A stretch of DNA of 64,000 bases from Euglena gracilis (lineage: Eukaryota), in NCBI GenBank assembly GCA_039621445.1, contig CP154954.1, positions 16,014,140-16,078,139 of the forward strand, read 5' to 3'. The notes beneath the pieces are model-generated. The model had not been told where the DNA came from. It saw only the letters and a list, made by a program, of their open reading frames with translations, and ran no database searches. Shown in pieces: positions 1-60,159 of the stretch. Each line of letters begins with the position of its first letter. Within the stretch, counting starts at the first letter, position 1. The position numbers were made by a program, and so were the translations under genes.

Positions 1-3000
1 ATAGATGTTAAGATTAAAATTATTGACCAATAAATAATTTGGTTTTCTATATTCTCAGAGAAAGGGCGGGCTTCAGCTTCTTTTCCGCATTTGCATTCAT
101 TTCACAGATTCATGAGCTGCAAAATGGGCTGACTGTTGCCAGGCTTAAATCCAAAACGCAAAGCCATTTGTTTCTTGCCAGCTGACACACCCCGTATCAA
201 CTGCATTTTTCCCATTCCCAAAATGCCATTTTCTTTGTGGTTCAGTGCACATGACATGGCGTGTCCATGACACCCCCCCCCCCGTGTCAACCGCACTTTC
301 CCCATATTTTGGCGTGTCAGGACGGGGGGGGGTAGGAGGGTGGTGTGGAATGGGTTCACCCAGTTAGTCTAACGTTTATGGTAGGGTTTAGGTTTGGTGT
401 CACCCTCCCCTCAAATGAACCCCCCCAATATAAACCACCTGGGGGCTTTGTTTGGTGACCAAGTATGACCCCCATGCCGATAAGCATCGCAGAAGCGGCA
501 CAAGACAGGAAAAACCCCCAAAATGCATTGTTTTTTTTCGACAGTTTTTCACGTCCTTTTTGTGGATGTTTAGACGGAAAGTTTGATTGAACTACCCACG
601 AAAGGAACGATCGATGGAATGCCACTGATTGATGGTAATTAGTCAGCTTAGCCTCCCTGGTGCCCTTTGGACGGTATGTCCGCCATTTCTGAATTTGGAG
701 TGATCCAAGGTTTGCTCTACAACAAAGACGGAATACTGCTTTTCTAGTTTCCAGGAGAAGGTCCGAGAGGCACCCCGGAAGCACCAGGTTCCAGGCAGCT
801 GAGGTGGGTGTTTCTCCCAAGTATGTTATTCGATGTTTTCGGTCGCTGTTTCCAAAGGCCATGTTGCGTTCATCCACCCTGGTGATGAATCAGATTCCAA
901 ACATCAAATGTTTCTTAATTTTGATGTATCTTTTTTAATTTGTATATTAAGAATTCATTACCTGAATACCATCCAGCGCACAGACAACACAGGTGCAAGG
1001 GGTGCTGCACCCATGCACCGATGTGATGTGTCGGCACGAGATTCCCCATTTGTTTTGTCAGGTGTTGGTGCTCTAACAGGAAGAAATATCGACTGGTGGG
1101 CCGGGGGGGGGTCTAATGGGGAACATCCGGGACCACATCCCAAAAAGGTCAAATTGTTTCTTCCAGCGCTTGGATTCAAAATGCTTTTCCCATTGACGAG
1201 ATTTTGTCAGGAAGTGCAAAGATTTTTTTGGACGATTTGAGCAAAAAAATTCATGTCCCAAGACAAAAAGTAATGTGGTGTCAATTTAACCAGGTCACTA
1301 TTTCGGGGGGGGTGTTCCCCACCCCCTGCTCCCCTTGAGTAGTGGAGGGCATGAACCCTGGACGGGATTTCAAGACCCCCAGGGAGGATTTTATTGGGAG
1401 CTTATACTTCGTCAACCCGCTTAGCTGTGCATGTGGCATTCAACACCTCCCCACCTTGCTGAGGCTGGGTTCCACTGGGGGCTCGGTTGGTTACCCAACC
1501 GCAAATTTAGTTCCCTTACTGTACACAGAGAAGCCAAACTATCGGGCGGGTGGAATCCCTGGGTGCGATATGGGTCAATGCGCAGATTTTACAAGAGGCG
1601 TCCGAAGGACATTCGCAGAAACGGTTTTCTGCACACTGGCTGCCTGCTCTTTGGGAAGGCTTCTGGATTGATTGATGGTTGTATGACCTGAGGAGGTGCG
1701 GCCGTCCCTGTCTTGTTCGTGCATTTTTTGAATTCTCTTCTTTTGTTGAGGGTTTGGGTTTGGGTTTGGTAACAATTCTTTCCCCTAGCAAAAAGGGGGC
1801 ATGGGGTGCCAGCCCGTTGGTTTCCCTGGAGACCAGAGATCTCAGGCCTAACCACCCCTGCTCTTCCCCTGACAGGGTTCTCCGGTTAGCCTCCGCCACC
1901 GGCCCCCCCCAAACCATATGGCCGTGCCGTTCAGCCTCATGCAGCAGCTCCCCGGTAAGTCCGACCTGTGGCTGCAGCTGCGGGGCTCCGAAGCTGCCCG
2001 AACCGCACCTAGGCCACATGATTATGGTACTACCCAAACCATGACGTTTCATCTCAACCGCCTCCCACCAGTTTTCTGTGCAAAAAGTCCATCTTTTTTG
2101 AGCAAAATTCCCAACAAATATCCCCTGTTCCAACGTTGTCCCTTCCATCCAACTGTTCGAATTGTTGTCCCTTACGTATCTGTTGGAGTATTTGAGCATT
2201 CCAGGCGTGAGGGCAAAAAAAATCCCAAAAAACCAAAATCGGGAAGGTTTCATTTTGATTTTTCTGGGATTCCCACATCTGGAATTTTCTCCCCAACCCG
2301 AATTCCGCCTGAATCGTCCTTTGGTTGGTTATTGGACCTGTATGGATTTCTGTCGGCCCAAAAGAGGGACGTCTGTGCGGGGGAGGGGGGGGGGTTATAA
2401 GTTGTGCCTCAGAGTTCTCCAGAAGGTCCTCATTATGCGCTCAGTTGTTGGTGATGGAAGGCACATAAAAATGGAAAATGGTTTTTTCTTTTCCTTCTTT
2501 TTTTTCTCCCTTCCTGGCGTCTGGCCTTTGGTCTTTTCATTTGAGGGTGCCCCCCAACTTCGCCCCCACACCCAGTCTTGTATCTAATGTTGACCAAGCG
2601 CATAGGGGGGGGTTGCTGGTTTTGCGATGATGTTTGCAGAGCAACTGCTGCATGGTTTTGGCACCAAAGGGGTTCCAGCCTCGCGACCCCCCCCCCCTGG
2701 CCCCATCATGAAGAGAATTTTAATTCTTGTTCAGCCCCTCCGAACGCCAGCTGGACTGCAATGTATTTTGCCTTCGAAGGTGCGCGCTTGGGTGAAAGAA
2801 GGGGTAAAACGGGTAAAAAATCGACTTCCTACTTCAGAATTTGAATCAAAAATCAATTTTTTGTGTATTTGCTGATTTTCAGGCCTTTTATTTTTTTTGA
2901 GGTGTCCAGTTCGAGCCCAAGTCGGGTCACGTTCCAACCAGCAGACCTTATTTCCGGGGGTTGATCCAGCGGCCTGTATGAACTTTTTCCAGCTCTCGAG

Positions 3001-3935
3001 CGGGACCCCCCCCTGGTGGGGTGGGAGACGCACTGTTTGGGATGCTTTCTGGAGGTTCGAATCCTGTGGTCTGCCCCCGCTCTCCATCTTGCAGGCTCAT
3101 CACACTCACCAAGTGGGAGGGGGCATTGCTGGCGTAAGTAGCAAGCGCGGGCACGCGACCGTCAGTGGAAACATTTGAATCACTTGCGCCAGTGCATTCA
3201 AATTGGAAGCGATTCCCCCAAATAAGACCAAGGTCTACGTTGGGTCCGTTGTTTTTAAACCCTGGGGGGGTGGGCTTATTTTTGGGAGTCAACTTTTTGT
3301 AATTTTTGTTTGAAAAACCATCCTGCGGAAGGTCCAAAATCAGGCCTAAAAAGGGACAATTTTTGGCCTCGAGCCAAAATTTTCCAAAATTTCCTCAAAA
3401 GGTGCCAATTTTGATGCATTCAAAAAGTGCAGAAAAGAAAATATGTCAAAGAAATGGTTGTCCACTTTGGGGAATTCTCACCGTTTTTGAGGGCGCTTCC
3501 GAAAATCCCGAGAGCAGGGTATTTTTTTTTGTTTGCTGAAAAGCTGCACCACGGGTGGATTTTTTCGGGGGCTAATTTTGGAGTGTCTTATTTTTTGAGA
3601 TTTTAGTTGCAATGTGCCCGAAGAAACTGAGAAAGCCAAGTCAGCTGTGGGCAGCCACAAACCTTGTGCTTGAAAGTTTGTTTACTTTTTGGGAAAAAGG
3701 CACTTCTTCAAATTTTGAATGCAAAATAGGCGAAAAGTTTGACCTATCACAGGGTGTTCCTGGTCCTTGTGCCGTCCACGCTTCCGGTCATGGATCCCTC
3801 AAGACATCATTGCAACTGACTTTCAAATGACAAAAGGTGAGGGTGCTTCAGCTGGCTGGCAGGACCCACTGATTCTGAAGCCAACAAATGGGTTGGTTCT
3901 TCTGAGCTGCTGCAGCCAAAAGTGAGGGGCTGCGG

Positions 3936-4556
3936 CAGGGCAGAACGGGAATCGGCCGAACAGCCAGGGTGGTGGGTGGGGGGGGGTCGACCACCCCCCC
4001 CAACCCCCTGCATGGGTGGGGGGGGGTCGTTCCCCCCCACCTCTTCCCGTATTTCCGGGAGCACCAGTTTTTGGACCCGAAAAAGATTTTCCGGCGCCGG
4101 GCGTTTTTTTTTGACCCATTTTGGGACCCATATAGGGGGTCCCCCCCAAAACCCCCCAAAACCCCATTTTTTCACACCTTCCAAAAATTCAACATTTTCT
4201 CAAAAATGTTGATTTTGAGAGGTTTTTGAAGCAAAAAATGCCTTCGAAAGTCCAAAAAATTTCAACGAGAAAAAATGTCAGTAAAATTTGACTGTGCCAA
4301 AATTTGTCCACTTTTTTTGACCTTCGTTTTTTTCACCCCCCTCCTAAAAACTACCAATTTTTAACCCTGAAAATTTTGAGATTTTTTTGTGAAAAAATGT
4401 GGGTTTCCATCAAAAAATCATGTGTTTTGGGTTCATTTTTCAAAAAAAATTCAAAGATTTTTCCGGCCAATATCCCCGTTTTCCTGAAATCGGTGAAAAT
4501 GCTGTGGTGGGTGGGGGGGTCGACCCCCCCCCACCAGGCCTTCCCGTTCTGCCCTG
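3936..4556. mobile_element. hAT-like MITE, 621 bp
   Basis: Perfect 16-bp TIR CAGGGCAGAACGGGAA / TTCCCGTTCTGCCCTG and perfect 8-bp TSD GGCTGCGG (3928-3935, 4557-4564). Confidence 0.92.
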
Positions 4557-5561
4557 GGCTGCGGAGAAGCAAGCGTCCCCCCCCCTCTTCTAAAACACTT
4601 TCGGTGCTTGCCTGAAACTGCTTTTTGCAAAGAAATTCAGGTATGTCTTTTTGCTGCACGCCGGGTCCGAATGATCGCACCGTTGTTTCGTTGGTGTGGG
4701 TGTCCCCTCCATGAAACCAAAGGGGGTTTCTGGACCCCCCACACTCGTGCGTTGGCCACCCGCTTAGGGACGAAAGACGGCTTTTTGTTGGCAGGGAGTT
4801 GGATTCTGTGTCTTTCAGAGGGCAGCGTGGTGCCCAGCACTGCACCCAAGTCCCGACCGATCCAAACAAAGAGGACCTCTTCCCCCTCGTCGTTTCCCCA
4901 ACTCCCCCTACGGCTTTCAGTCCTTTCCTCCATTCTGGACCTTGGGGGGCCCGATATCAGCAGGCTAACTCGAAGTTTACATGGTCCGAGCCACAGGGGT
5001 GCAACTTGCATGTGGACTTGGCTTTTCTGAATCGGTTGACTACCAATCTCCCCACCCCCAGCTTAAGTCCATAGCCGCCAAAGTGGTTGAAATTACAAAA
5101 AAGAGGCCAAAAACAGCCAAAAATGGCCATATACCCCTTTCTTGTGGCCAGGGGGCCGAAAAAAAATGAGGGAATCCATTTCCACTGACCCCGGGTGAAA
5201 AAACAACAAGCCATCTATTCACACCGAACCCCTCTCCTCCGCTGCCGTCCCTCAAACATTTCAGAGACAACCAGGGCTTTGGCGCCACACCAGCCACGGA
5301 CAGTCTGCCGCGGCTCCGTCACGACGAATTAGTTTCTCCGAGGACTTTGGCGTGCTTGTCTGGATTCCTTTGGTACTTTCCACTTTCCACAAACGGACGG
5401 GGGTTTCGATGGCTTATCGAAATCTCTGTCATTTTAGGAATAGGGGTTAGAGTTGCAATTGTCGTTCAGAAGAGGGCCAAAGTTAAATTTGGCCAAATTG
5501 GCTCTAAATTTAGCTGAATTAGGCCTAATTTTTGTCGAATTTTAGTCTTAACGGGATGAAT

Positions 5562-5634
5562 CCTAACCCTAACCTTCCTAACCCTGACACTGACCCCATC
5601 CCGAACCAATAACCCAAAACCCCAACCCTAAACC
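5562..5634 (+). repeat. Degenerate interstitial telomere-like (CCCTAA) tract
   Basis: CCTAACCCTAACCTTCCTAACCCTG…AACCCTAAACC; similar short tracts occur at ~12880-12915, 49435-49450, 50485-50530 and 59026-59098. Confidence 0.45.
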
Positions 5635-6454
5635 TGGAGTTGGGATGCCAGTAGGTATTGCACATTTGTCCTGGATCTCCAGTGGGGAGTTCAAAAACAC
5701 AGAGAATGTGGCTTCGGGCTCTCTTGTTGACGCAGGGACGGTCCGACCCTCCCCCTGCTTTTTCAAACCCCATCCCTGGGAGTGTGAAGCAGAGCACGTT
5801 CATACGGTCTGCAGCACACAGACAAGAGTATTCAGCACACAGTCAGCAGTCATAGATAGACAGTCATAGATAGTGACTGGCTGGTTTTCCGAAAGAGAGT
5901 GGCTGACTGGTTTTTAAAAAAGTGGAGTGACCCCCCTACCCCCCGGGGGTCGGTAAAAAATTGTGTGGTGGGTATCACAAGTTCACAATTTAAGAGTCGC
6001 AAAACCTGTTGTACAGAGAAAATCCTGTGAAATATTTCTGTGGTAGGAACCGCGTTCCCCTGGAAAGCATAGAATATGAAAGCATTCTTGCCGCCGTTCA
6101 GACAAGAGCGTCCGAACCACTTGCACCCTCCCCAAAGCCATTCTTGCTCAAAATGGACTTTGATTTTGTTTCAAGTTCACCGCGGTGCCAGGGAACCCAG
6201 AATCGGTGTGGTGAAAGCCTTTCCCGAAAATTCCAAGAGCTCTCGACTGGCCCATCCCTAAGGACCGTCCCCTTGTCTGACACAAGTGCCCTTGACACCC
6301 CCCCCCCCCCTGTGTCAACGCACATTCCTGGAACATTTCTGTGCCTTGGGGGTTAGCAGCCTTGCTGCCTTCGGAGGACAGGACTGCCAGCTCCCTCCCC
6401 TCCCCAGAGCCGACACACCCTGGGGTGCTGGACTGCTGCCCGCCGCAATGGGCG

Positions 6455-6521
6455 CAGGGAATTTCTTAAGCTGGACCCCACCCTATCCCGGGGGGGGGGG
6501 GGCGTCCGGTTTAGCTGGCCG

Positions 6522-6556
<35 letters not shown>

Positions 6557-6693
6557 GGTTACCACTCGACCCCCCTCTCCGGGGGGGGGGGAGTGGTAAT
6601 AAAGTAAAACAAAGTAATGAGGGGGTCCAGCCAGCATTTTTTTCCAGCCAGCCGTTTGGACCCCGCCAGAGGGGGTTCTCAAGAAATTCGCTG
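6455..6693. mobile_element. hAT-like MITE inserted in an exon (candidate young nonconventional intron), 239 bp
   Basis: TIR CAGGGAATTTCTTAAG / CTCAAGAAATTCGCTG (14/16) and TSD AATGGGCG / AATGGGCC (7/8). Paralog B (47350-47410) lacks the insertion. Confidence 0.88.
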
Positions 6694-7418
6694 AATGGGC
6701 CCCCTCCGAGGGCACCCAGGCTGACTGCGCTGCGTTCCCATCGGCTCCACTCGCCCGATCCCTGCTTCATGTGGTCGGACATGGGGACATGCAAGGTTGC
6801 TTATTCCTGCCTCCCCTCCTGACTGCCTTTTTTTTGAACCCTCATCCCTTCTCTTGGCCTCTTTGTCTGGTTTCTTTTTGGGGGCATGGCCTTTGGATTT
6901 TTGTCCCAAATCTGGTGGTTTACCCTTTGTACCTGCCCAGGGAGAACCCCACCAAACCAGGCTTGTGCTTAGTCGGGTGCCTACCCCACGGGGGAGTGGG
7001 TGGGTGCTAGGGGCAGGCACCCCATGGCACCCGATCCGCCCCCCGCCCCCCCAGGGAGGGGTAGGGTTTTGGGGGGTGCCTGCCCATAGCAGGCAACCCC
7101 CCTCTGACCCCGGCGCCGAAGGCGCTGGGGGCCTGGGAAAGGCCATTTTCAATGAAGATTTTCTGGGCCCCCCGGACCCCTACCCCCCCCTGGGGGGTGT
7201 GCCTGCTAGGGGCAGGCACTCTATAGCACCCACCCACCCTCCCCCCCTGGTCGGTAAGCACAAGCATGCACCAAATACCTGTGGCATGACTGGGCGTAAG
7301 CACCAATTTGCTAGGCAACTGTATGGATGGGATTGGATCTCGGGCAGAGCACAGCATTGCTGTAGCTGCAACTGACGTGGTCCTCTCCCACGCACCCCTG
7401 TTGCATCACGTACGTGGC

Positions 7419-7479
7419 GGCCAGGCAGATGCTCTGAAAGATGGGGAACTGATGTCGCAGTGAGGGTCTGCCTGCCCCT
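7419..7479 (+). other. Euglenid-type nonconventional intron (61 nt)
   Basis: GGC-CAGGCAGA...TCTGCCTG-CCCCT|G: CAG at +4..+6, CTG at -8..-6, complementary ends, R first, Y last, exon resumes with R. Removal eliminates stops and joins two conserved frames. Confidence 0.85.
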
Positions 7480-7620
7480 GATCCCCCTCAGATGGGTCCC
7501 AGCCTGCCTCCCCCTGTGTCACCCGGAAGTAAGCCAGCCTACCATACGGTGCACAATCCGTACTCTTTTGAAGGTCCTTGGGCCATATACCGGAGGGTTT
7601 TCAAACTACTTGCAGAGTAA
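7480..7620 (+). CDS. Terminal exon of paralog A: DPPQMGPSLPPPVSPGSKPAYHTVHNPYSFEGPWAIYRRVFKLLAE*
   Basis: In frame with the upstream exon (…VLSHAPLLHHVRG, ending 7418) only after removal of 7419-7479. The peptide is conserved in paralog B (47950-48168). Confidence 0.7.
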   Translation, partial: DPPQMGPSLPPPVSPGSKPAYHTVHNPYSFEGPWAIYRRVFKLLAE

Positions 7621-8265
7621 CGGAGGCATTGTTAAAAGAAGGAATGTATTCATTTCCTGAATCACCATTTCAATCTGTGTTCCTTTAATTTACTGATTCA
7701 TAGGATTTTTGTCACCCAATGAATTGGGTTTTGTCTGCCAGAACTGCACATCCCTGTTACACATTGAGGACCACAGCACCTCCTCATGTCAAGGAAACTG
7801 CCTTTTTTTGTATCCCCGCCAGAATTAAGTGCCAATGGCTCTTCCTCGTTTCCCAACCGCCCAGGGACCCTAGCGATGGCCCTCAATACGTGGTCCAAGC
7901 GACCTCGTGATTGAGTCCAAGGACCGACAGCCCGCGCAATCATCTTCCTCTTGTGGAGGCCATGGTTGTTGGGTGATCAAACCGCAATGAGAAAAACATT
8001 ATCATGGTATCGTGCCGTTGAAACAGCGGTTGTTGAGACCCCCCCCCTGTCAAGGGCACTTTCCTTGAACACTTGGCTTGTCTTGGACAAGAGGGGGAGG
8101 GTACCTGTTAAGTGCTGTATTTTTCACTGGTCCTTGAGGAGGGGGGTCCCACAATTATCAGCATTTTTACCAATTATTTGGAATCGTGTTTTTGCGTCCG
8201 AAAGCCTCCTGGCGCACCAGGTTCAAAGCTCTGGTCACTTGCAAAAAAAGTCGCACATCATCTTA

Positions 8266-8666
8266 CATTCCCCCCCCCCTTGTCCTTGACACGCCTTGTC
8301 CATGACACCCCCCCCGTGTCAACCGCACTTTTCCCGTACCTAAAAAGAGTAAAGTATTTTTGACACACTTCACGTCTCTGGAGCTCGTCTCTGGAGCTAA
8401 TTGGTTGCCATTTTCTGTACAGAACCATGGCTTTGAACTTATCTTCTTTTGAGTTTGGTGATTTAGTGAGATATGAGCGCTCCAATGGAGTTATTGTTGA
8501 TGCTATGGTGATTGGGCCCTCAAACCGAGGCCTAGATTACCTGGCCATCATTTTGCTGCATGTTTTGTGGTACGGTTCCCATGACACGGCGTGTCCATGA
8601 CACACCCCCCGTGTCAACCGCACTTTCCCCGTATTTTGGCGTGTCAAGGACAAGGGGGGGGGAATG
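8266..8666. mobile_element. Tc1/mariner-type MITE (TA TSD), 401 bp
   Basis: ~30-bp TIR CATTCCCCCCCCCCTTGTCCTTGACACGCC / GGCGTGTCAAGGACAAGGGGGGGGGAATG flanked by TA on both sides. Related partial copies occur at ~255-335 and ~18985-19030. Confidence 0.88.
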
Positions 8667-10376
8667 TAGGCATCTATCGTGGCTTATTGTGCTTGGGAGT
8701 GGGGTGCACTTTCGCAAAAATTCATACCAGAGGTGGGAATTTGGGGTTGAAGAAAAGATTGGATGAGCAAAAAAAATGGCCTTAAAAAGGATGGGTGGTG
8801 TCGGCCAAAGTCGCAATCATATTCGGAGACCAGAACGCTCTGAAAAAAGGGGATAGAAAATTTTTTAAAAAAATGTGGAAGACAAGCTGTGTGGTTATCT
8901 CCAGCGTGCCCATAAATTCTCATACCCACGTCCACAGAGAATTTTCATCCCCTGAAAAAAGAAATGGGAAAAAAGAATGGCACCCCACACTCCACAGAAC
9001 CATGCTGAAGAACCTCAGAGTTGCGAGTACCGGTGGAGCACTTAGAACTGAGTAGCACCACCTCAAAATGAGGTCATGCCAAACCCCAGGGTTTACCCCC
9101 AGCTCCCTCGAAAGAAACCCATCAAGTCCCTACAAGCACATCAGCCTGCCAATTCTTGCTCGCGGTTAGAAAACACTCTGACTGCACAACATCCGACCTG
9201 CAACTGGTGCTCGTGCTCAATGGGGTTAAAATCAGGGCCTGTTTTTTTTTCTTTCAAGTGGAGTGTTCGCAGTGGATGGGGTCACCAATTTCACCAAGAT
9301 TTCACTTGTGAGAAAGCCAATAAAATACGCCCAAACGCGATACATTTCGGCAATTTTTATGTCTCTGTATCTGTATCTGTATCACTCGATGCCAAACCAT
9401 ATTTCTGCAATCCCGCAGCGGTGCAATCTGGATTAAGCAGTCGCAATTGCCCGACAAAGCACCAATCCACCAGGCGCAACTCTGAGATGGGATTTGGGCT
9501 GGTTCTGTGGAATGTGCGGGGCCATCATCGCACATACCCGGGAAAACGTCCCCTGTGCCAACCCTGAACCGCCTTCAAAGCAACCTTCCACCTACCTTGT
9601 AAACCAGGTGTTGTGCTGAGCTCTTCATGTGTCTGATGGTGCCATGCTGCAGCAGACGTTTGAGGCTTGTGGCAGCCAGGGCGGCCCAGCCCGGCCCCAG
9701 GGTTGTATGGGAAGCTCTGCAGACATGAGGAAGGTGATAGGGGGGAGTCGCCGAGCTCTTATCCCTTTATGGGTAAGAGCGAAGCTTACCCCTGGGGAAA
9801 TGGGGGGGGGTTCGAACCGCCCCCACCCTCCCCCCCCGGGGCGGGGCCACCTCAGGAACCGGCGGATTATCACCATGATCCCAGCTCCGTTCCCGGAATT
9901 TTTTTTTCAGTCGCGACTGGATTTCTAGTTTCCAAATCACCTCCGTTTGACCCCCAACTCCCCGCCAGGCCCAAGTTATTCAGCCGCGAAGGGGTCCAAA
10001 CTGGGTAGGATTGGCCCGCCCCGCCCCCCCTTCCGACTCTGCCATTTCGCCAGGGTCCAAAAATGGGTCACCCGTCGGTCAAAAATTCGATTTTTCGAAA
10101 ATATCTCGAGAAAGCGTACATTATTTCCGGAAATGCGGTCTGACGAAATGTACCCCCGGAGGCCCTCCATCGCCCCCCCCCTTCACCGTTTTGGCCGCCG
10201 ACACGCCTGGCCCGTGTTCCGGCACGCTTTTGCGGCGGCCCAAAATGGCCATTTTGGGTGTTTTTTTTTGGGCCGTTTTTTTTGGTCAAAAATCGATTTT
10301 TCCAAATTATCTCGACAATGAAGCAAAATCAAAGAAAATGTCCGCAGAGTAAAAATGAAGCCCTTGGAATGCCCTA

Positions 10377-11729: not shown

Positions 11730-14249
11730 GTATAAGTGGGGGGGTTATGGGATGGGGCAGGCAGACCTGTACCTATATTTTTTGAGATTTTTCACATTCT
11801 TGTTGAAAAATCACATTTCCCGAGTTGAAAAAAATTGCTTGCATTTCTGTGGCTGCTGATCGCAAATGTGTGGAAAAACCACATTTTCGAATTTTTGTGT
11901 TGGCTACCCGGACAAGCACTGCACCCTTGACCTATCTTTATAGGGACCTTTCGCCTCCCTCTGTACTCACTGATTTGACAGGTGACAGTTTCCCGAAAAT
12001 TGATAATTTACCGGGCACACTGTAGATTTATTGAATATGTTAAGATTTTTCATCTGTATACAAGGATTTTATACAAGGATATACAAGAAACAAATTGGGA
12101 CTTACCTAAGGAGCCCAATTGCCTGAGAGCATTGGACATTCACAGGTTGCCCCACTCTCCTCGTTTGTTTCAGGGTCTGCTCTTGCTTTTGGATTGTCCC
12201 ATCCCTGATTGCCAGCAGAAGTCGGCAACCGCTGCTACAGGATGGTTGCTGCCATGGAGTGTTATCCTTCCGCTGAGCCATGTCGCACCCACAATCTTTA
12301 TATTGGGTGAATCTAGGGCAGCTCTCAACACGTGCAATACATTTTAGTGATGGTGAGGGCGCCAACTTCCCATTATAGCCCTGATCTATGAAGCTCCCCA
12401 CCTCTGTGAGGGGTCTCTGAAGATTTTTTGTAGTTGCAAAATCTCGATAAGCTGATTTTTTTTGCAGTTTTTATGAAATGAATGAATGAATGCTGTTTTG
12501 ACCAGTTTCTCTCCACAAAAAATATCACGGATTTTCCCATCTCTGCCTGGATGTTTGTTTGTTTGTCAATATGTGTGTCTGAGTGTCTGTATCTGTCTTT
12601 TGGACATCTTCAGGGAAAAAAGCGTGCAAAAGTGTGCTAAAACATGCAAAGAAAAATCCTGAAAAATAAAAAATGAGAATGTTGGGAAAAAAGAATTAAA
12701 GGGAAAAACACACAAAAAACCATGTAAATGCAAAACTCTTCCAAAAATGCAAAAAAAGTGTGCAAAACGGAAGAAAATTTGCAAGTGAATGGAAGAGTAC
12801 TGCTTTCCACTGCAGAAAAAGGGCAATTGACCACGCCAGGACCTCACCAGCAGGTGGGGACCTGGTTTAAGGGTCCTCAGGTTGGGGTTTGGTTTGAGCT
12901 AGGGTTTGGGTTACGTTCAGGATTGTCGGTCGATGCCACATTTAATCCTATCTAATCCATGGCATAATCATCCTTGCCCTGATTCATAAAGCAGCAGGCA
13001 AGTCGAATCTGGACAGCTGAAAGGGCGGTTTGGAAATTCAGATTCCTTGTTAAATCAGGGATTTCTTGAAGATTGGACCCAGGGGGGGGGGCACTCAGGG
13101 GGAAATTCCACAGAAAAGGTTTGTCAAATAGGAGTAATGTGCGGTGTGAGTGCGTGTGCAATTTTTTTGTTGGCTTATAATGGGCCCTGGGGCATCATTT
13201 CTCGGCCTTTTTTCCTGTTCCCCGAGTGTTAACGACCCAAGGCATCGTTTTGCTTGGTAAATGGTTGGGGAGCGATGGCAAAGGTTGGCTGTTTCAAAGG
13301 GAAAATGGGCCCCGAGCCCGCCAATGCTTTTTCAGGGTCGCTCTTTTGTGTGACCGAACCTGAAAGAAACCAGCAGCATCGACCTCCCACACCTCCCCCT
13401 CGATCGAACGTTTGTGATTTTTGCCCGCAGTATCGAAAATTCCACAGAAAAGATTTATCAAACGGGAGTAATGTTCGTGTGTGTGTGTGTGCACTCTTTT
13501 TCGGCTTGTAATGGTCCCTGGGGCATCATCCCTCGGCCTTTTTGGGGGCGGGTTTGTTGTTATTTTTTTTTTGGCTCGAGCTCAAAGTGAGAGATGGCGT
13601 GAAGTGGTGCACCCACAGTACCCCCCCCCCTCCACCCACCCCCCCCCCCCCCCTGCTGCCACCCCCCACACCCTTCCCCCCCCCCCACCCCCTTCGCTGC
13701 CACCCCCCCCTGTCACCCCACTCTTGGACCTCATTGAATGCCAAGTTTTTGGCATACAATTCATTTTTGTTGGCTCCTTTTTTGGCGTCATTTTTTGACA
13801 CCGGCCTCGTCTGGGGGAGGGGATGCCCCCCCAGAACAAAAATGGCATCACTACTCTGTGCAAGGTGAGGCTCAAATGTCTTTTTGCGTTCCATTTTTTT
13901 GAGATCTTCCCGTTCATTTCCATGTGTCTTGCCATGCTCTGGCAAATTGGTCATCTGAGCCTCCACAGAGCCTCTGAGGAGCCGCTGTGGAGGCTGGTCG
14001 TTTGGAGCCTTCGCGGAGCCTCTGTGGAGACGCGGAGGCAACCCCCCAAAAAGGCAGGATTCAGATTTTGTTGTCGTGCCATCCCTTACTCGAACTGACT
14101 CCTAACCCAGACATTTGTTGAAACATTAGAATCACAATTGCGCAAACGGTGCCTGTGAAGACTTGTAAAGACAATTGCCCAAACCAATTGATACCACAAA
14201 GCTTGCACATCTGCAATTCTGCTAGCAATCCACTGAAAATTATTGTTTT

Positions 14250-14750
14250 TCACGGCATATGGCATGAGAAAGAAGAAACAAAGTCCTGAGTGTACTGATT
14301 GGGAACGTCCACGCTTTGCCATCCAGCGGGGACACAGCGATGTTGGTGATGCTGCACGAAGTCCGCCAGGACTGATTGCACTGGGCGCCTGGCCACCAGC
14401 GGGACGTAGCACAGCACCCTCTCCACGGAAGGGCACTTTGGGTACTCCGGGATGGCCACCAGGGTCGTCTGCACGATGGCCACGATGGCTAGGCGGTGCA
14501 GTCCTGGGTGCGGACAGGTTCGAAAGGGTGGAGCGCACCTGGTGCTTCTGCACTGGGCGCCTGGCCACCAGCGGGACGTAGCACAGCACCCTCTCCATGG
14601 AAGGGCACTTTGGGTACTCCGGGATGGCCAGTGCAGTCCTGGGTGCGGACAGGTTCGAAAGGGTGGAGCGCATCTGGTGCTTCCAAAAGTTGTCGTACCA
14701 CAGCACGCAGACTTTCCCCGCCTCTGCTGCCGCAGTTCCACCCGACACCC
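14250..14750 (-). pseudogene. Degenerate ORF of unknown function (GKVCVLWYDNFWKHQMRST…VERVLCYVPLVARR…), possibly TE-borne
   Basis: Protein-like composition, present in both inverted copies (48960-49294 on +) with different lesions. Copy 1 has an internal tandem duplication (14378-14672). Confidence 0.35.
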
Positions 14751-14886: not shown

Positions 14887-16291
14887 CAGGTTGCCAGCAC
14901 AAAAAACATACCCCCCAAAAGCAAATTCCCCTTTCCATTTTGTCCCCAGTTGCTCTCATGCCCCCAAAAATGAGCACTGCCGACAGAGCGGCTTTAAGCA
15001 AGCGCGTGGAGACGTATCTCTCTTTTGTTCCACCCTGGTCGCTCAATAAGATTGCAAATCATGAGAAAATATCCAAAGCTACAGTGCAAGGTATATACCC
15101 AGCTTGTACACAATTCACACCAGCCACTTATCCCAGGTATGGCATCCAGATTCAAAGAACGCGGCACGCTTGATCGCAAAGTTGGATCGGGATCCAATCA
15201 GCAAAAGGCAAAGAAATATTCAGAACGGTGTGCGACGTTTGCAATAAATTATATTCCATTCCTTAATTCCCACAGGTTTCGAAGAGGTGTATTAAAAGTG
15301 GCAATGAAAAACCCTTTTTTGGAGTTGCAAACAAATCGCCGACGAGCATTTCCTCCGAGTTAGCACCGCATTGTTAGCCCGTCCAGCAGGGGCAGTGGTT
15401 AAGGCGTGTTTGTCAATCGTTATGCATATGCTTTTTTGTGTGAATTTCAGATACCGCCAAAACCATCTCCAGAATTCATCCGTACAATTCTACGGAAGGC
15501 GGGCTTGTGCTGCCAAACCGCAGCAAGGAAGCCATTACTGTCCTCGGTGAACAGTTTGGGTTTGGTAACAATTCTTTCCCCTAGCAAAAAGGGGGCACGG
15601 GGTGCCAGCCCGTGGTTTCCCTGGAGACCAGAGATCTCAGGCCTAACCACCCCTGCTCTTCCCCTGACAGGGTTCTCCGGCTAGCCTCCGCCACCGGCCC
15701 CCCCCCCCCAACCCACATGGCCGCGCCGTTCAGCCTCATGCAGCAGCTCCCCGGTAAGTCCGAATGGGGTTAAGGTCTGGCGACTGTGGTGGCCAAACCC
15801 CTCCGTTGAAGCGCAGCACTCGCTTCCACCTCATCCACGCTGTGGTACTCCGCGCACGGTGGGGAGAAGCCCCGTCCTGCTGGAAGCGGTAGCCCGCAGT
15901 CCTGCACAATGGATTGTGAATATGTCGAATATTGGCGTGCAAACACCAGGCGTTTCCGCCATGGTGCTGCACAAGTTGCGTGGGCATGTGTTTGCGGGCA
16001 AAGACCATTTGTGGTCGGCTCTGCAAGCTGCCTTCGCAGAAATCTCCCCCGAACAGGTCAAAGCATTTTATGACAGCATGCCTAACCGCATGCGGGCTGT
16101 CATTGCGGCTCGCGGTGGACACACCCACTACTGACCTTCCCATACCCCGCCCTTTTGCATGACGGTTGCATTCGCGGCAAATCCAGCGCTTGATTCGCCG
16201 CATTGCTGCTTATAGCTTTACTCACCAGATGGGGGGTATGTTTTTTTGTGCTGTCAGGGGGGGGGGTATGTTTTTTTGTGTTGGCAACCTG
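14887..16291 (+). mobile_element. Tc1/mariner DNA transposon, 1405 bp, internally rearranged
   Basis: ~30-bp TIR CAGGTTGCCAGCACAAAAAACATACCCCCC / GGGGGGTATGTTTTTTTGTGTTGGCAACCTG, TA TSD, empty site in the inverted duplicate, and transposase motifs inside. Confidence 0.95.
14958..16134 (+). pseudogene. Tc1-family DDE transposase pseudogene with three short introns
   Basis: Spliced N-terminus MPPKMSTADRAALSKRVETYLSFVPPWSLNKIANHEKISKATVQG|MASRFKERGTLDRKVGSG…|…IRTILRKAGLCCQTAARKPLLSSVN, with introns 15091-15136, 15228-15275 and 15404-15450. FQQDGASPH and WPPQSPDLNPI lie on the minus strand (15763-15958). The C-terminus LWSALQAAFAEISPEQVKAFYDSMPNRMRAVIAARGGHTHY* is on plus. Confidence 0.9.
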
Positions 16292-19207: not shown

Positions 19208-19463
19208 CAGGGGTTTTTTTTAGTCGTGGCCCCCGGGGGGGGGGTGGGGTGGGTGGGTCCGGCTGAGCCCCCCCCCCCCGGGCCCCTAGGGGGGAGTGGG
19301 ATATACTTTTCGGTGCCGAAGGCGCCGAGAGTTTTTGAAAAGGTGCTATTTTTGGAATTTCCCACGATTTTTGAGTGGCTCCGGAACCCCCCCCCCCCGG
19401 GTGGCCCAGGGGGTGGGTGGGCGGGGGGGACCCCCCCTCCCCCCGGTCTTAAAAAAACCTCTG
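19208..19463. mobile_element. hAT-like MITE, 256 bp
   Basis: TIR CAGGGGTTTTTTTTAG / CTTAAAAAAACCTCTG (14/16) and perfect 8-bp TSD CTCCAGGT (19200-19207, 19464-19471). A related end begins at 23517. Confidence 0.88.
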
Positions 19464-22945: not shown

Positions 22946-23754
22946 CAATTGTGGCCCGCCCCAAGTGCTGACCCCCCCAGGTCGTAAAAGAATTTGCAAT
23001 CCCCGCATTTTTAGGCACGTTTTCAAACCAGCTTTATTACAAACAGAGGTTGCACAACTTGCAATATTCTGGCATAAATCAAAAAAAGTATTAAAGGGAA
23101 GGAATTTGCATTTTTTTTAATAATTTGGCATTCTGCCAATGAAAGTTACATATTTTCCATACTTTTCTTATTTTGCATATCTGCTCAACCTCGGAGCTTT
23201 TTTCTCCTGGTATTTACACAAAAAATGCATTTGCATTTCAACAGATCGTCTGGGGATTCTGAAGTTGAATATTTTCTTTTTTTTGATGAGCCTCTGCAGA
23301 GGCACAGGTTACCAGGCTCAGAGGCTCCGCGGAGGCTCCAAGGAGGCTTGGGTAACCAATTTTGCTACAGAACGTGGGAGAAGTAACGGATGAGATCATG
23401 GTGTGAAATGGCAGAGGGAAACAAAACTATTGCCCCCAACCGCACAGCAGAATGCGTCCCTCACGAAATAACGCTTCCCTTTGTGTATTCCAGGGGACTC
23501 TCATTTTTTTTTCTATCAGGGATTTCTTAAAGACCGGTGGCAGGGGGTCTCCCCTCCCCCACCCCACCCCACCCCGGCGAAGGGGGTCTGGCAGACCCAC
23601 TTTTTGGTCAATATTTGGGGTCAAACTTTTTCAGAAAATAGGTAAAAAGTAGATGAGAACCCCGCCTTCAGCAGGGTGTTCACTCAGCACGACCCCCCAA
23701 ACGTACACATAGCATGATTCATTATGCAACACCATACATTTTTTTGCACAATCA

Positions 23755-24319
23755 GAACAATAACAACAACAACAACAATCCCCAGACCACCACCACAACC
23801 ACAACCACCCCAAAACCAAAACCAACCAACTACAAACACAAAAAAAACAAAACAACACAACAAACAAAACAAACCCCACCAACAACAACACCAACCACCA
23901 CACCACCAACCACCACCAAACCACCACAAACAAACACCACCACCCCCACCACCACCACACCAAACCACCCCAAAAAAACCACCACAACACACACAATAAC
24001 AATAAACAACACCACACACAACAACATCACCAACACACACACCACCACAACAGCAAAACAACAATGCACAGAACATCAAAAAAAAAACAAAAAAAAAAAA
24101 ACAAAAAAAAACAACAAAAAAAACAAAAAAAAAAAAAAAAAACAAAAAACACCACCACCAACACAACAAAAAAAAAACAAAAAAAACATAACAAAAAAAA
24201 CAAAAAAAAAAAAAACAACAAAAACAACAAAACAACAACAACAAAACAAAAAAAGAAAAACGACGACAACAAAAACAACAACAACAACAAAAAAAAAAAC
24301 AAAAACAAAAAAAAAAACA

Positions 24320-24355
<36 letters not shown>

Positions 24356-24525
24356 AAAACAACAACAACAACAACAAAAAAAAAAACAACAACAACAAAA
24401 ACAACAAAAACAAAAAAAAAAAAAACAACAACAAAACAAAACAACAAACACAAACAGACAACCACACCACCACCACCCAACCACCACCACCAAACCACCA
24501 CCACCAAACCACCACCACCACCACC
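23755..24525 (+). repeat. A/C-only low-complexity tract (probable degraded read of a trinucleotide repeat)
   Basis: Almost no G or T; grades into the clean CAG repeat. Confidence 0.8.
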
Positions 24526-25630
<1,105 letters not shown>

Positions 25631-25756
25631 ATTATATATAATATTGTTATTACATATAATAATTATAATTATATATATTAATACATATAATATTATTAAT
25701 ATTAATAATGATAATAATAATGATAATGATAATGACAACAACAACAACAACAACAA

Positions 25757-25776
25757 GTTTTTGTTGTTGTTGTTGC

Positions 25777-25854
<78 letters not shown>

Positions 25855-25860
25855 CATTGT
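25757..25860 (+). repeat. (TTG)n/(CTG)n microsatellite, inverted relative to the CAG/CAA tract
   Basis: Direct reading; separated from the CAG tract by an AT-rich spacer (25631-25735). Confidence 0.95.
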
Positions 25861-26222
25861 TATTTTTTTTTCATTGCGACCACCGGGAACAATTTTTTTT
25901 GCAGCCTGCTGCGACTCTGAAGTATTTTTGTTTCCAGCGAGCCAGCTAGTGCCAATTCAGTTCGACCCACCCTCTGGGGGCCCTTAAGTGCAGGCTTGGC
26001 TATTCAGGTGTTTATGCTTCCATATCTGCTCTTTTTTTCACATAAGAGAACTCAAGCTGAATAAAAATTACCAGTATATTTCAAATAAACAAATCAGTGT
26101 ATAAATAGCCCATAATTTGAGAAATAATGGATAATGCGCAGGATTGGGGCAGCGGACACCTGTGCAGCCCGGACAAGCAGCATGTGCACACTGCAGGTTG
26201 CTCCCTGTGCTGGTGTGTATCA

Positions 26223-26400: not shown

Positions 26401-28417
26401 TCTGGATGCCAGGTGGCTTTGTGTAGCTGTTCCACCGCACCGGAATGACCAGCACAAGGCACCTCTCGGCCCACACTCTGTGGCGGCAGATCTTCTGGCT
26501 TTCTGAAAAGCTTAAGAGTGATGAAAAGGAGGATACCCACCCATCAATCGTCCAGACTTGAAATTTTTGGCGTGTGGAACGTTGTTTTGACAGAAAGGGG
26601 ACTGTCATAACCTCAGAGATGATTGTTCAGCTGGATCTTTGGCACATATATCTCCCCTCTGGATGCGAATCTCTCCTGACCAAGCACGTTTGATGATGCA
26701 GCATCTCCCAAGCTTTGGCCAAAGCTTGGGTTCTGTTGCCGGCGGCAGGGTGATGAACGGAATTTTTTTCTTCGATAATTTCTTCGAAAACGTTCGATAA
26801 TTTAAGCCATTTTCGCCACTTTTGGCCGTTTTTGTCCATTTTTGGCTATTTTTGGCCTTTGTCGTCCTTTTTTTTTGGTCCATTTTCGGCCATTTTTGGG
26901 GGCATTTTTGGACATTTTTGGCCGTTTTTTTTGGCTGATTTTACATATATTTGGCCCTTTGGGTGCCTTTTGGCCATTTTGGGCAGATTTTGGCTACTTT
27001 TGGCTGCTTATGGTTGATCCATAAAATGGATCTACATATTTGTCCCTAAAATGGCCAAAATGGGATAAAAGTGGCCAAAGCAAAAAGTGGCCAAAAAATG
27101 GACCAAAAGTGGCCAAAGCGCTATTAGTGGCCAAAAGCAATCGAAAAATGGCCGAAAGAGGTCCTGAATATTTTCCAGGATCTGCAAGAAGTCTGGTTAA
27201 AATATAAAAAGGGGGAAACACCCAGATAAAACTGGGCATGTTTTCAAAAGTAAAAAAAAGTAGAAATACCCAGAAAAAAATGGGCATGGTTTTCGTCACC
27301 CAGGGTTTCTCATGATTTGATCCTAGTAAATCCTCGAGATCGTCCCGAGTAAACAGAGTTTTATTGTGCAATTGATGCTATCCAGGAAAATTTGCAAGCT
27401 GCAACAGGTTGATTTTTCCCCCAAAAAGAAAACCAAAAATTCACACACAAGGCACAAAAGCAACAGCTTTTTTCGTTTCCATCCAATTTGTCCCGGCCGC
27501 TTTTCCGAATGTTTCCCTGCAATTTACCTCCGTGTTCTTGTTTGTTTTGAGTTGCGTGTTGCCATTAGGTTTTCTTTAACAACCCTGGGGGAGGGGGGTG
27601 TATTGGGCTATGGTGCACCATGACAGGAAACCCCCTCGGGGGCTTTGGTTTGGGTATTGATACTCCCAAGAAAATTGCCATTACAGCCAATGCTCCCTTG
27701 TGAATGGCCATTATCGGGCACGCCATGGTCAGGCAAGGGGTGTTCATTTTCGACCTCCCGTGCCCCCCGTGCCAGTATTTGGGGTGGGTAATGCTAATGG
27801 GAAGCACTCCGGGGTGAAGCTTTCTGAAAAGATGCCTAGTTGTCACAACCTGGATTCTGTCAATGATATAAATTATGCAATTTGCATTTTCTCTTCACCC
27901 CCGAAGCTTGCATTTTCCCTTATTTTGGCTTTTTTTTAAAAAAAAAATACAAGTTCCATGGTTCCAAAAATGCTAGAAACCGTGAAGACCTTGTTGTAGA
28001 CCTTGCCCCCTCCCCGCCACCATTCGCTTACCCTGAAAGTAGCTACCAGGGTGATTTATGGCTTGATATGTGTGTGTGTGTGTGTGTGCGTGTGCGATCA
28101 TTTGTGGCAACTCAGCCTTGCGCCCCTGAGCCCCTGGTTGCACCAGCGAAAGGCCTTTTCACATTGCGTATGTCGCACCGGTAGAACGGGGAGCCTTGCC
28201 CTCGCCTATTTGCTATACACGTCCGCCACCAGCTGCCCTCTGGCTGATCTGGGGCACCGTTTCCCTGGCAACGACACCACACATATTCTTACAGCAACTT
28301 GCAAAAAGGCTGTTTTTTTTCAAATCCCCAGGAGCCGAACACAAGTTCAATGTTTGAACGACTTCAAGACTTCAAAGGTTCCTGTTTATCAAAAATTCAA
28401 AAACGGTGAAATTCATG

Positions 28418-28561
<144 letters not shown>

Positions 28562-28972
28562 CCCTGTTGTCACCTTTTTCAGTTTGGTGGAGTGATGGAA
28601 AGTGAGAGGTGCATATTTCAGTGCACTGGGCCGAGAAGACAAATGCAAAGCGACATATTGCATCCTGGGACCGACATGTTAGCCATTTTGGTGTTCTTTG
28701 GACTCGGGAGAGGGGGGGGGGCAGCAATCGAATTTCAGCCTCTAGGAACCGTCTTGTGGGTCGTCATAGAGATTTGTCCTCCATTTTTGGATTTGCCATA
28801 TTGTCAGCAAGTTGTTTATTGGGGGTAGATAAACAATTTTTTCCCCCATTGATAAACAATTCTTTCCCCATTAACCTGAATATTTAGATTAAAAGAGGCA
28901 CAAGGAGCCAAAGTCCAAGATGAATCACCTATTTCGCCAAGGAAAACGTAAAACCGGGGGGTTTTTTGGAAG

Positions 28973-29039
28973 CACGAACAATCACGAACAATCACGAACA
29001 ATCACGAACAATCACGAACAATCACGAACAATCACGAAC
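28973..29039 (+). repeat. 10-bp tandem repeat (ATCACGAACA) x~6.5
   Basis: Direct reading. Confidence 0.95.
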
Positions 29040-29079
29040 CGGATTTCATGCTTCCTAGCACGAACCGGTGGTAAACCCT

Positions 29080-30302
<1,223 letters not shown>

Positions 30303-32102
30303 TGATGCTTTTTGCGGCCTTGGCAGCATCGAGACCACATCAACACAGACTTTGCATGAAATGGCTGACAGGACCATCGGTCAGTCTAGCCAAATTTTCT
30401 TCTTGCTGTCCCACCCGGGCGCTTGGCCCAGGCCATGAAGGTAAGGCCAGGGGGCCAACCTTAGGGGGGCCAAGTTTGCATGTGAAGAATTTTGGCGGCC
30501 ATGTGCAAAAGGCCATCCCTACAGGGGCCAAGTTTGCATGTGAGGAGGAGGGTGGCCAAACGCCGGGGGGGGGGGGTACTGTGCATCCGGCACATTTTCT
30601 TCAAAGCAATTGGGTGGGTGTCTCAACTAGCAGATATCCCCTCCAGTCAAGCAACCTTCAGTGCCGAAGCAATCCAACGGTGTTTTCAAAAGGACAACAG
30701 CCTGCAAGCAACGCCATCCCCAGGCTCGATTCTCCTCGAGGTCCCTGGGCTTTCACCGTGGCTGCGAAGAAGAATTCGTGGATGGTTTAAAAAAGGTGTC
30801 ACGGAAACTGCTTGATCCTGATGTCAATCTTGATGCCAACAAAGTCATACCATTCCTCACTGTCTAACCAGGGGTGATTACAGATTAACTGATTGGTTTT
30901 TTGGGCTCTACACCCCCCAGGGGAGGCCAGATGACCGAAAGTGGCACCGTTGGCCCAACGAAACATTTTCCCAATAAACACCCCAATCTTGGACCACAAA
31001 TGCAAATATACTGGAAGAATTGGCACCCCCACTAGCCTTAGTGGGGGGGGTGGGCGGGTGTGGGATTGGGTTGGGTTGGGATAACCAAAAAATTCGGGTG
31101 CATTTTCGGAATCACTGTGAAATGTGCTTCCTTAAGTGGGGGTAGTAATTAGTGGGACGTCCTACAGGAACTATCTAGTGGGACAGGCAAAAAAATTAAT
31201 TTTGTTCAAAATCTCCAATGATCCTGCACAAGTGCAGGATCATTCTAAAATCCCTCACCAGGAACCAAAAACAATTTTCCGGCGCTTCTCGCCGGGAAAA
31301 TGAAATTTTCGCCGTAGGTTTTGACCAATTTTTTTCAAAAAGTGCGCTTTTTGGGGCCTTTTTCAAGGCCCGGTTTTTTTTCCGGTGCAAAGAGCTTTAA
31401 CATTTTTTTGCACAGAGGGAGGGGGGTCCAACTCACACACCCTCCAGGGGGTCCTACCCCCCTGTCCCCGCTCATTTTTTACCCTTCCTTTCCCCCACGG
31501 TGACATTTGTGGCTTGTGTTCTGCAGTGCCCGGCAGTTGCAGGCGCAGGCCAAGCCCCGGGACCATTCTGTTGGAGTTCCCATCTGATGAATCAAGGGCC
31601 CCAATTTTTCGCGCTCTTGTTTTTATAGCTCCTTGGGAGCTATAACGCTTCCACCCTCTATAGCTCGGAAGCTCTGCAAGCTTTGCGAGTCACGTGTCGC
31701 TTGTCCTCTGCGTTGCGTGTGTAATAGCTTTGGCTCTCGCGTCTGCGGGCCAAGACTCGATCGCCCGCCCCACAGGTTCCTTGCGTGGCTTGGCTGGAAA
31801 TCCTTGGGTGTTGGTACCCCCCCCCCCCCAGGCGCTTCCCCCCCCCAGGCGCTTCCCCCCCCCCTCCTCCTTACATGCAAACTTGACCTTCCTAAACTTC
31901 AGCCTTAATTTGCAACTTTGCGCCCAATTTTAGGGCGTTTTGGCTTGTTTTACGCATGGTTGGTACCCTGGCCTAACGTTCAATCGGGTCCAGGGCACCT
32001 GGGGGGGGGGGGGCAACCACCTTCGCTGGTGCAGGGCGATGCAGTAATTGTGGAGTGTAACTTAGACGGCTGGGAATGCACTTTTCATTTTTGGTGGTTT
32101 TT

Positions 32103-45075: not shown

Positions 45076-45389
45076 CAGGGCGGTCCTTAAGGGACAGGAA
45101 AGTTTTTTTTTTATTTCCTTAAGGACCGCCTCCCTTTCAGCCAAAGGGCCGGCTAAGGGCCAGACTGGGACTTGAACAGGGACAAAAATTAAACAGTCAA
45201 AAAACACAGTTTTTGATGATTTGGGTGGATGGACGATGGTCCAAGGGTGCCAGGAATCATTTTTTTGCCTGATGTCGACCTGTTCTCGCTGTAAATGCCA
45301 AAATTTCGCCCATTTTCCTGTGTATTTTTCACTGAGTGTGCTGGGACAGCGGAGTTTTTTTTTTATATATTTGCTTAAGGACCGCCCTG
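45076..45389. mobile_element. hAT-like MITE, 314 bp; exact nonconventional-intron geometry (45073-45394)
   Basis: Perfect 16-bp TIR CAGGGCGGTCCTTAAG / CTTAAGGACCGCCCTG and perfect TSD GCTGTGCC (45068-45075, 45390-45397). Confidence 0.93.
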
Positions 45390-48168: not shown

Positions 48169-48654
48169 TTCACCATTTCAATCATTGTTCTGTTCATTTT
48201 ATTGGATTTCCCATGAAAGTCTTCCAGAATTGCACATTTCTGGGTTTTAGCAGTTGGAAGTTGTCCACATTGAGGACTGCAGCCCCATTTCAAGGCCGCA
48301 CTCTTTTTATTCGGTCCTCCAAGGTTTAGGGCCAATAGGTCTTCCTCGTTTCTAAACCTGGCCCCAGGCCCCTTGCGATGGCCCTCAATGTGTGGTCCAC
48401 GTTGGCTCGTGATCAACTCAAAAGTCTGACAACCCGTACCCAGACTTTCCCCTCCCTCCTCCCTCCCTCCCTCCCTCCCTCGCTACACCTTTTGTGCACC
48501 TGTGCACTTGGGCAGGTGCACCCCCGTATGTACCGTGGTAGCTTCTGTGGAGATGATTGGAGCTATTGTCTTTTCTGTTTCAGATAGAGCTTTCAGCCCC
48601 TCCCCCCGAATGAGATCTCCAATGTAAGCGCTCGGTTTAGATGCCGGTTTGCAT

Positions 48655-59919: not shown

Positions 59920-59985
59920 CAGGGAATTTCTTAAGCTGGACCCCACCCTATCCCGGGGGGGGGGGGCGTCCGGTTTAGCTGGCCG

Positions 59986-60020
<35 letters not shown>

Positions 60021-60159
60021 GGTTTCCACTCGACCCCCCTCCCCGGGGGGGGGGGGGAGTGGTAATAAAGTAAAACAAAGTAATGAGGGGGTCCAGCCAG
60101 CATTTTTTTCCAGCCAGCCGTTTGGACCCCGCCAGAGGGGGTTCTCAAGAAATTCGCTG
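59920..60159. mobile_element. hAT-like MITE, copy in A'
   Basis: Duplicate of 6455-6693 with the same termini and TSD. Confidence 0.88.

Follow-up and report, generated by a model that had tools for sequence, protein, structure and literature searches.

Introduction

How euglenid nonconventional introns arose has been an open question since the 1990s. They have been described as introns whose borders vary, whose ends pair and whose junctions carry direct repeats (PMC3935182), with CAG and CTG at positions +4 to +6 and -8 to -6 and repeats resembling target-site duplications (TSDs) (PMC11282704). Knock-in experiments have defined their splicing code as a 3-bp spacer, CAG, CTG, a 5-bp (5-6) spacer and a purine in the acceptor exon, and approximately 72% of introns in E. 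agilis are nonconventional (PMC12501133). An origin from MITEs was proposed in 2014 by Milanowski et al., in the section 'The Origin of Nonconventional Introns', at a time when, according to that text, euglenid genomes had yielded no identified transposable elements (PMC3935182). The proposal was restated in 2024 (PMC11282704) and in 2025, and the 2025 PNAS text describes the origins as ones that 'remain unclear' (PMC12501133). A Ds element creating an intron is on record in maize (Giroux 1994, cited in PMC3935182).

Our literature search, which covered the main texts of openly available papers, returned no text in which nonconventional introns are linked to an identified transposon family, to hAT or to a duplication of 8 bp. 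In the main texts of PMC12501133 and PMC11282704, a whole-word search gave 0 occurrences of 'hAT', and '8-bp' and '8 nt' are absent; the sole '8 bp' in the main text of PMC12501133 is the position '-8 bp', and 'duplication' occurs 0 times there. It is possible that a link to a transposon family has been described elsewhere. Here we analyze a locus within a 64-kb window (the whole stretch of Euglena gracilis DNA under study) where a non-autonomous hAT-like MITE very probably landed in an exon of one gene copy and is removed from its RNA as a nonconventional intron.

Results

A putative hAT-like MITE lies within an exon

We found that a 239-bp insert at 6455-6693 interrupts an exon of unit A, one of the three copies of a gene in the window (A, A' and B). 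The inverted arms of the insert, to which no strand is assigned, are 16 nt long (6455-6470, CAGGGAATTTCTTAAG; 6678-6693, CTCAAGAAATTCGCTG), pair at 14 of 16 positions and give the ends CAGGG...CGCTG, while the interior holds a hairpin (6559-6599), a (GCCA)n tract and poly-G tracts. An exact 7-nt direct repeat, AATGGGC, is located at 6447-6453 and 6694-6700. Read as an 8-nt target-site duplication, the two copies are identical at 7 of 8 positions (AATGGGCG at 6447-6454 and AATGGGCC at 6694-6701, + strand). The location and duplication that the initial annotation had proposed from sequence, spanning 6447-6701, are thus borne out. Under the splicing code, the left copy would contribute its first 5 nt to the exon and its last 3 nt to the intron, and the right copy its first 5 nt to the intron and its last 3 nt to the exon. 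Deletion of the element plus one repeat in silico yields the open frame that had been quoted for this exon. A transcript that keeps the element meets a stop after four codons of the frame, and the 247 nt involved are not a multiple of 3.

The termini, CAGGG and CAGCG, match the short terminal inverted repeats starting CAG(N)G of hAT-like MITEs, the duplication is 8 bp long (7/8 here, and 8/8 in three elements with like ends in the window) and the element is small and non-coding (239 bp, with overlapping ORFs that carry no Pfam family). CAGGG termini combined with an 8-bp duplication are what we take to be the hallmark of hAT-type elements, and we infer that the element is hAT-like. None of the 234 ORFs of the 64-kb window carries a hAT transposase domain by Pfam, and the element may belong to another superfamily with 8-bp duplications, e.g., P-like.

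Related elements and evidence of mobility

We scanned the window for elements with CAG...CTG ends, arms pairing at 11 or more of 14 positions and 8-nt flanking repeats identical at 7 or more of 8. The scan returned 6 matches, whereas the reversed sequence and every one of 20 shuffles gave 0. Our data confirm that the MITE within the exon is real and beyond chance, since neither the shuffles nor the reversed sequence produced a single match to this architecture. When terminal letters were left free, the same scan gave 9 matches, 6 of them the CAG...CTG ones. The six comprise the element and its copy in A', an element at 3936-4556 and its copy in A' (57442-58022), and elements at 19208-19463 and 45076-45389. 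All three of these further elements have CAGGG...CCTG ends and duplications identical at 8 of 8 positions (GGCTGCGG for 3936-4556, CTCCAGGT for 19208-19463 and GCTGTGCC for 45076-45389), with arms pairing at 14 of 14 positions in the first and last. The element at 3936-4556 is situated inside the intron upstream of exon 4855, and its A and A' copies are distinguished by a 39-bp internal palindromic piece (3979-4017).

A further MITE of like build was read by eye at 6958-7268 (60424-60733 in A'), having been dropped from the scan by the low-complexity filter. It is nested in the intron downstream of the interrupted exon, with ends CAGGCTTGTGCTTA / CATGCTTGTGCTTA, flanks CACCAAAC / CACCAAAT, arms pairing at 13 of 14 positions and a duplication of 7/8. 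In DNA run X14 its summed depth is 135,000-317,000 versus approximately 100, which suggests that the genome contains roughly a thousand copies or more.

The 239-bp element is itself in excess in X14, where two bins within it have a summed depth of 1240-1430 and its flanks approximately 100-220, an excess that may be due in part to the (GCCA)n and poly-G tracts. Seven X14 contigs start matching at 6454 and have left flanks unlike one another (agreement 0.44), and these seven unlike flanks are better evidence of mobility than the approximately 10-fold depth. Furthermore, X14 contigs from other genomic places match the element at 95% likeness or above, which points to a young element family.

The element is removed precisely from RNA

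The datasets available as candidates for one organism were 14 DNA sets, six small contig sets of probable RNA and four raw RNA-seq runs. From these we compared RNA and DNA over 4800-8300 using X15 and X16 (contigs, probable RNA), X21 (raw RNA-seq) and X14 (DNA contigs); the assignment of X15 and X16 to RNA is a guess which the depth contrast between exons and introns fits. We found an RNA joint, 6446>6694, that skips 247 nt, equal to the element plus one duplication, and can slide by 7 positions. Its depth is 401 in X15 and 204.9 in X16, and it is carried by 1 raw read in X21, where exon coverage is only approximately 1-2 fold (flanking bins roughly 1.8-2.6, both mate directions summed). The cDNA junction predicted by the initial annotation, 6451^6699, is an equivalent placement of this joint within its slide.

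Depth inside the element (bin 6555-6671) is intron-like, at 1.8 in X15, 1.6 in X16 and 0 in X21, compared to 166-428 in X15 and 140-219 in X16 for the flanking exon bins. The element is therefore removed from RNA about as completely as the neighboring introns, and the earlier description of an intron gain still "in progress" does not hold. The joint is absent from the contigs of X14, a DNA run from a different sample than the RNA runs, and X14 contains no empty-site contig. Indeed, X14 contigs cross both borders between element and exon unbranched (5943-6478, depth 122; 6623-6757, depth 80.8).

An extra CCG behind 6754 is common to X14 and all three RNA runs and is lacking in A and A' of the window, and therefore the RNA resembles a genome that carries the element. 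This CCG difference is in frame, and B has the longer form. The two duplications differ at their 8th position (G left, C right), and the RNA shows the right-hand C, as the code predicts, a result that any cut at or before 6453 would equally give.

The element intron fits the nonconventional splicing code

Five main RNA joints were found in 4800-8300, none of them in any X14 DNA contig: 4912>6390 (skipping 1477 nt, slide 3), 6446>6694 (247 nt, slide 7), 6780>7327 (546 nt, slide 5), 7418>7480 (61 nt, slide 1) and 7569>7875 (305 nt, slide 2). X16 and X21, and no other run, also show a short sixth joint, 7951>7983, with a skip of 31 nt. Conventional splicing is ruled out, since no placement of any of the five main joints gives GT..AG; for the element joint, neither GT..AG nor GC..AG occurs at any of the 8 slide positions.

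We found that each of the five introns has exactly one slide placement, among 23 in all, that makes positions +4 to +6 complementary to -8 to -6, where approximately 0.36 would be expected by chance. For the element intron the pairing occurs at only 1 of the 8 compatible positions, 6452-6698 (+ strand, 247 nt), with a 3-nt spacer, CAG at +4 to +6, CTG at -8 to -6, a 5-nt spacer and arms pairing at 14 of 16 positions. It is the intron that had been suggested from sequence on the basis of its CAG at +4 and CTG at -8. The same code places the other introns, all on the + strand, at 4915-6391 (CAG/CTG at +4/-8, arms 13/16), 6785-7330 (CAT/ATG pairing, with the MITE at 6958-7268 nested in it), 7419-7479 (61 nt, CAG/CTG, 8 bases pairing without mismatch, CAGGCAGA/TCTGCCTG) and 7570-7874 (GGT/ACC pairing, arms 11/16). 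In 5' to 3' order the arms of the five introns pair inward at 13/16, 14/16, 5/16, 11/16 and 11/16 positions. The base that opens the next exon is a purine in 4 of 5 introns (G at 6699 for the element intron), and the asymmetry between +4 and -8 places the gene on the + strand. Two of the five introns pair via CAT/ATG and GGT/ACC, outside the published CD'G-CH'G motif. An unconstrained minimum-energy fold of the element intron forms local hairpins and leaves the terminal arms unused.

Our data support that the element intron is a nonconventional intron of the euglenid type. Within the window, the agreement of all five introns with the code is what points to a euglenid host. Within the 7-nt ambiguity, we infer that the exact cuts fall at 6451/6452 and 6698/6699 and that the splicing machinery is the euglenid nonconventional one. 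The 8-nt flanks of the four older introns are identical at 4, 5, 1 and 4 of 8 positions, or 14 of 32 versus 8 expected, a hint that they are decayed duplications.

Gene copies and the timing of insertion

Unit A (1118-10306) has a second copy, A', at 54629-64000; the alignment of the two covers 9241 bases and shows 130 substitutions, and the individual pieces are 98.2-99.3% identical. The sole other copy of the element in the window, at 59920-60159, is 97.9% identical and is the same insertion in A' (59912-60167, + strand, duplications 59912-59919 and 60160-60167). Both window copies of the element family thus represent one duplicated insertion, and no independent copy occurs within the 64 kb. 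A' also has an insertion of its own at 61131-61370, comprising 63 bp in addition to a long poly-T tract, in the intron matching 7570-7874.

Paralog B, an older copy at approximately 45431-48436, is collinear with A in blocks of 66-86% identity. Its homologous exon, at 47318-47470 (+ strand), is uninterrupted, with the insertion point at approximately 47374/47375 and no insert across approximately 47370-47392. The initial annotation had described an empty site preserved in B: the exon is indeed uninterrupted and aligns in frame, but the site is preserved only approximately, its sequence having diverged, with net extra bases relative to A (approximately +6 beside the site and +9 over the whole exon). 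Introns are retained in B at four other positions and none occurs at the element site. Among B's four introns CAG/CTG is intact in two, and one pairs through G-U. Since B retains the four other introns and has none here, insertion after the A/B split is favored. The most economical reading is that the element was gained in the A lineage after the A/B split, as had been surmised earlier, and before the A/A' duplication. Furthermore, A and B differ by approximately 20%, whereas the ends and duplication of the element are nearly intact.

The host transcript and its coding potential

The exons seen in RNA are 4855-4912, 6390-6446, 6694-6780, 7327-7418, 7480-7569 and 7875-7921. With the element intron placed by the code, the exon half upstream of the element is 6390-6451 (+ strand; RNA contigs, joints 4912>6390 and 6446>6694) and the downstream half is 6699-6784 (+ strand), ending at joint 6780>7327 (slide 5). 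The motif GGTTGCTTAT is present in both A and B and is not used for splicing in the RNA. A donor shared between them, G|GTTGCTTAT at 6796, had been proposed as the end of the exon. The RNA does not use it: joint 6780>7327 rules out a splice site at 6796, as the exon ends at 6780-6785 and the next intron starts at 6781-6786, so that G|GTTGCTTAT, though conserved in both A and B, falls within the next intron.

An upstream exon lies at approximately 3084-3119, ending near 3110-3119. Upstream of 4855 the RNA reads ...CACCTGGTG and the window has ...CACCAAGTG; in another extract of the same stretch (3110-3119 / 4855) the RNA has ...CACTCACCTGGTG versus ...CACTCACCAAGTG in the window. The RNA end differs from the window by 2 letters, which may reflect a strain difference or another paralog. 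The intron at 3120-4854 departs from the +4/-8 pairing rule. Acceptors far downstream were found near 12222-12254. Loose RNA ends at 7921, 7925 and 8020 continue at approximately 12222-12273, which implies alternative joints of approximately 4.3 kb downstream of the stop codon.

The joined exons form one open frame of 139 codons that contains the peptide of the initial annotation and stops near 7915. In B, mapped by homology, six exons keep the same frame open, with net changes in exon length of +9, -6 and 0, and the stop is at the same place. Frame length is ruled out as proof of coding, since 545 of 5000 shuffles of this C-rich sequence reach at least 140 codons. Substitutions between A and B at codon positions 1/2/3 number 21/34/38 and are not in excess at the third. 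An HMMER search of 1.84 billion representatives gave 0 relatives for the uninterrupted B exon (50 residues), and Pfam on the 234 stop-to-stop ORFs of at least 90 aa gave no family at the curated cut-off and four sub-threshold matches. In metagenome scans, the element end and a 25-nt exon stretch common to A, A' and B each gave 0 loci. Protein coding by the host exon is plausible. Of the "conserved exon" described earlier, what stands is a transcribed, spliced exon, and its protein coding is unproven.

Window setting

The window is eukaryotic, has a G+C content of 50.6% and abounds in microsatellites and transposon remnants. Scans for Rfam families and tRNAs found nothing, and no rRNA marker is present. 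The sole interpretable sub-threshold Pfam match is a weak Tc3-type transposase HTH at 15403-15681; remnants of Tc1/mariner-type transposase occur on both strands at 15403-16209, with DDE-motif and C-terminal-like stretches in the ORF translations. Through an inverted duplication of approximately 2.8 kb and approximately 91% identity (11761-14548 versus 48994-51585), the region downstream of gene A recurs in reverse orientation behind paralog B. At 23657-25949 and 28000-30400 there are very long arrays of compound microsatellites, with trinucleotide runs and ACGC/AC-type repeats.

Discussion

Our data indicate that a non-autonomous hAT-like MITE very likely landed in an exon of copy A and is removed from RNA as a nonconventional intron. 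According to the mechanism that we propose, a hAT-like MITE with CAGGG termini and an 8-bp target duplication would have inserted into the exon after A and B diverged and before A was duplicated to A'. The termini of the element would themselves provide CAG...CTG, and its inverted repeat would serve as the paired stem. Cuts at 6451|6452 and 6698|6699 would take away 3 nt from the left duplication and 5 nt from the right one, and the remaining 5 and 3 nt would rebuild a single 8-bp target, bringing back the exon sequence and frame from before the insertion. Because the 3-nt and 5-nt spacers add up to 8, the length of the duplication, excision from RNA would restore the uninterrupted sequence.

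The joined RNA might alternatively stem from an element-free allele, a near-identical paralog or a polymorphic strain, with A and A' merely disrupted. This is conceivable since the RNA and DNA runs come from different samples, the gene has three copies in the window alone, contig sets drop rare variants, and the 2-letter difference at the loose end upstream of 4855 means that the reads stem from a sequence that is not identical to the window. We consider such a source unlikely, however, given that X14 lacks an empty-site contig and its contig 5943-6478 crosses the left border unbranched at the usual single-copy depth, that the CCG marker at 6754 is shared between X14 and all three RNA runs, and that the four neighboring joints, which are also missing from DNA, show the same non-GT-AG processing. 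Excision of the element from somatic DNA by a transposase, followed by transcription of the repaired gene, is very improbable. Class II elements do leave DNA, but hAT excision normally leaves footprints and not a perfect single copy of the target; the joint is essentially the sole RNA form (depth approximately 400 versus 2) and is undetected in DNA, and neighboring introns that are not intact transposons are removed alike.

A reading as intron loss, in which the element was present before the A/B split and was later precisely lost from B, appears about as unlikely as an element-free source. The net extra bases at the B site could be an excision footprint. Nevertheless, the element has kept its 7/8 duplication and 14/16 arms while A and B share only about 66-86% identity, the contigs from other genomic places matching it at no less than 95% indicate a young family, and loss through a cDNA copy is unlikely given that all four other introns are retained. 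A question of a different kind is whether any frame is rescued, as the interrupted exon may be UTR or part of a non-coding RNA, in which case the birth of an intron would still stand. We regard this as a considerable possibility, if a doubtful one. In its favor are a frame length common among shuffles, substitutions that are not in excess at third positions, the lack of relatives in the HMMER search and of a Pfam family, and further introns downstream of the stop. Conversely, A and B share the same frame over six exons, with net differences of +9, -6 and 0 and the same stop, and the frame runs on into the upstream exon.

Returning to the insertion of a MITE that is spliced out as an intron, we tentatively suggest that the euglenid nonconventional splicing code might be the RNA image of hAT-type transposon ends, an idea that we hold to be quite possible: CAG...CTG would be the termini, the stem would be the inverted repeat, and the 3/5-nt spacers would remove one 8-bp duplication. 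If so, the asymmetry of the spacers would have a simple rationale, their sum being the duplication, and each such MITE in a transcribed region would be born, in either orientation, as a perfectly excisable intron. It would follow that the class making up the large majority of Euglena introns descends from such elements, and that this gene's older introns, whose arms pair at 11-13/16 and whose flanks have decayed (14/32 versus 8), are aged examples. Given the rationale of 3 + 5 = 8, the MITE-origin hypothesis can be put to a direct test both across the genome and in the knock-in assay already published. The locus bears the marks of a datable birth, namely an intact element, its duplication, probable other genomic copies, an empty paralog site, two filled duplicates and exact removal from RNA that fits the experimentally determined positions.

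The element intron resembles the nonconventional introns of Euglena gracilis and E. agilis in lacking GT-AG and in having CAG/CTG pairing, 3/5-nt spacers, the purine, extended pairing of the ends and slidable borders. It differs from published examples, which in the literature searched are not tied to an identifiable transposon family, by having an intact element, a near-perfect 8-bp duplication, probable other genomic copies and an empty site in a paralog. The element is a putative relative of hAT-superfamily MITEs, which have Ac/Ds-like ends, and shares with them the 8-bp duplication and CAGGG termini. The MITE-origin hypothesis likewise has a MITE-like element land in an exon and leave the pre-mRNA; in the text that proposes it this is a hypothesis only (PMC3935182), whereas the locus described here offers a concrete element and thus a concrete case for a transposon origin that is published and unproven. 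Introner elements of Micromonas, Aureococcus and dinoflagellates, as well as MITE introns of the Fritillaria type, are similarly DNA transposons that bear inverted ends, give rise to introns when they insert and contribute their target duplication to the splice borders (PMC11282704, PMC9860276). Those are spliceosomal and use GT/GC-AG or adapted sites, whereas the element intron offers such sites at 0 of 8 positions and fits the euglenid CAG-CTG stem code instead, which would make it the product of an introner-like mechanism independent of GT-AG recognition.
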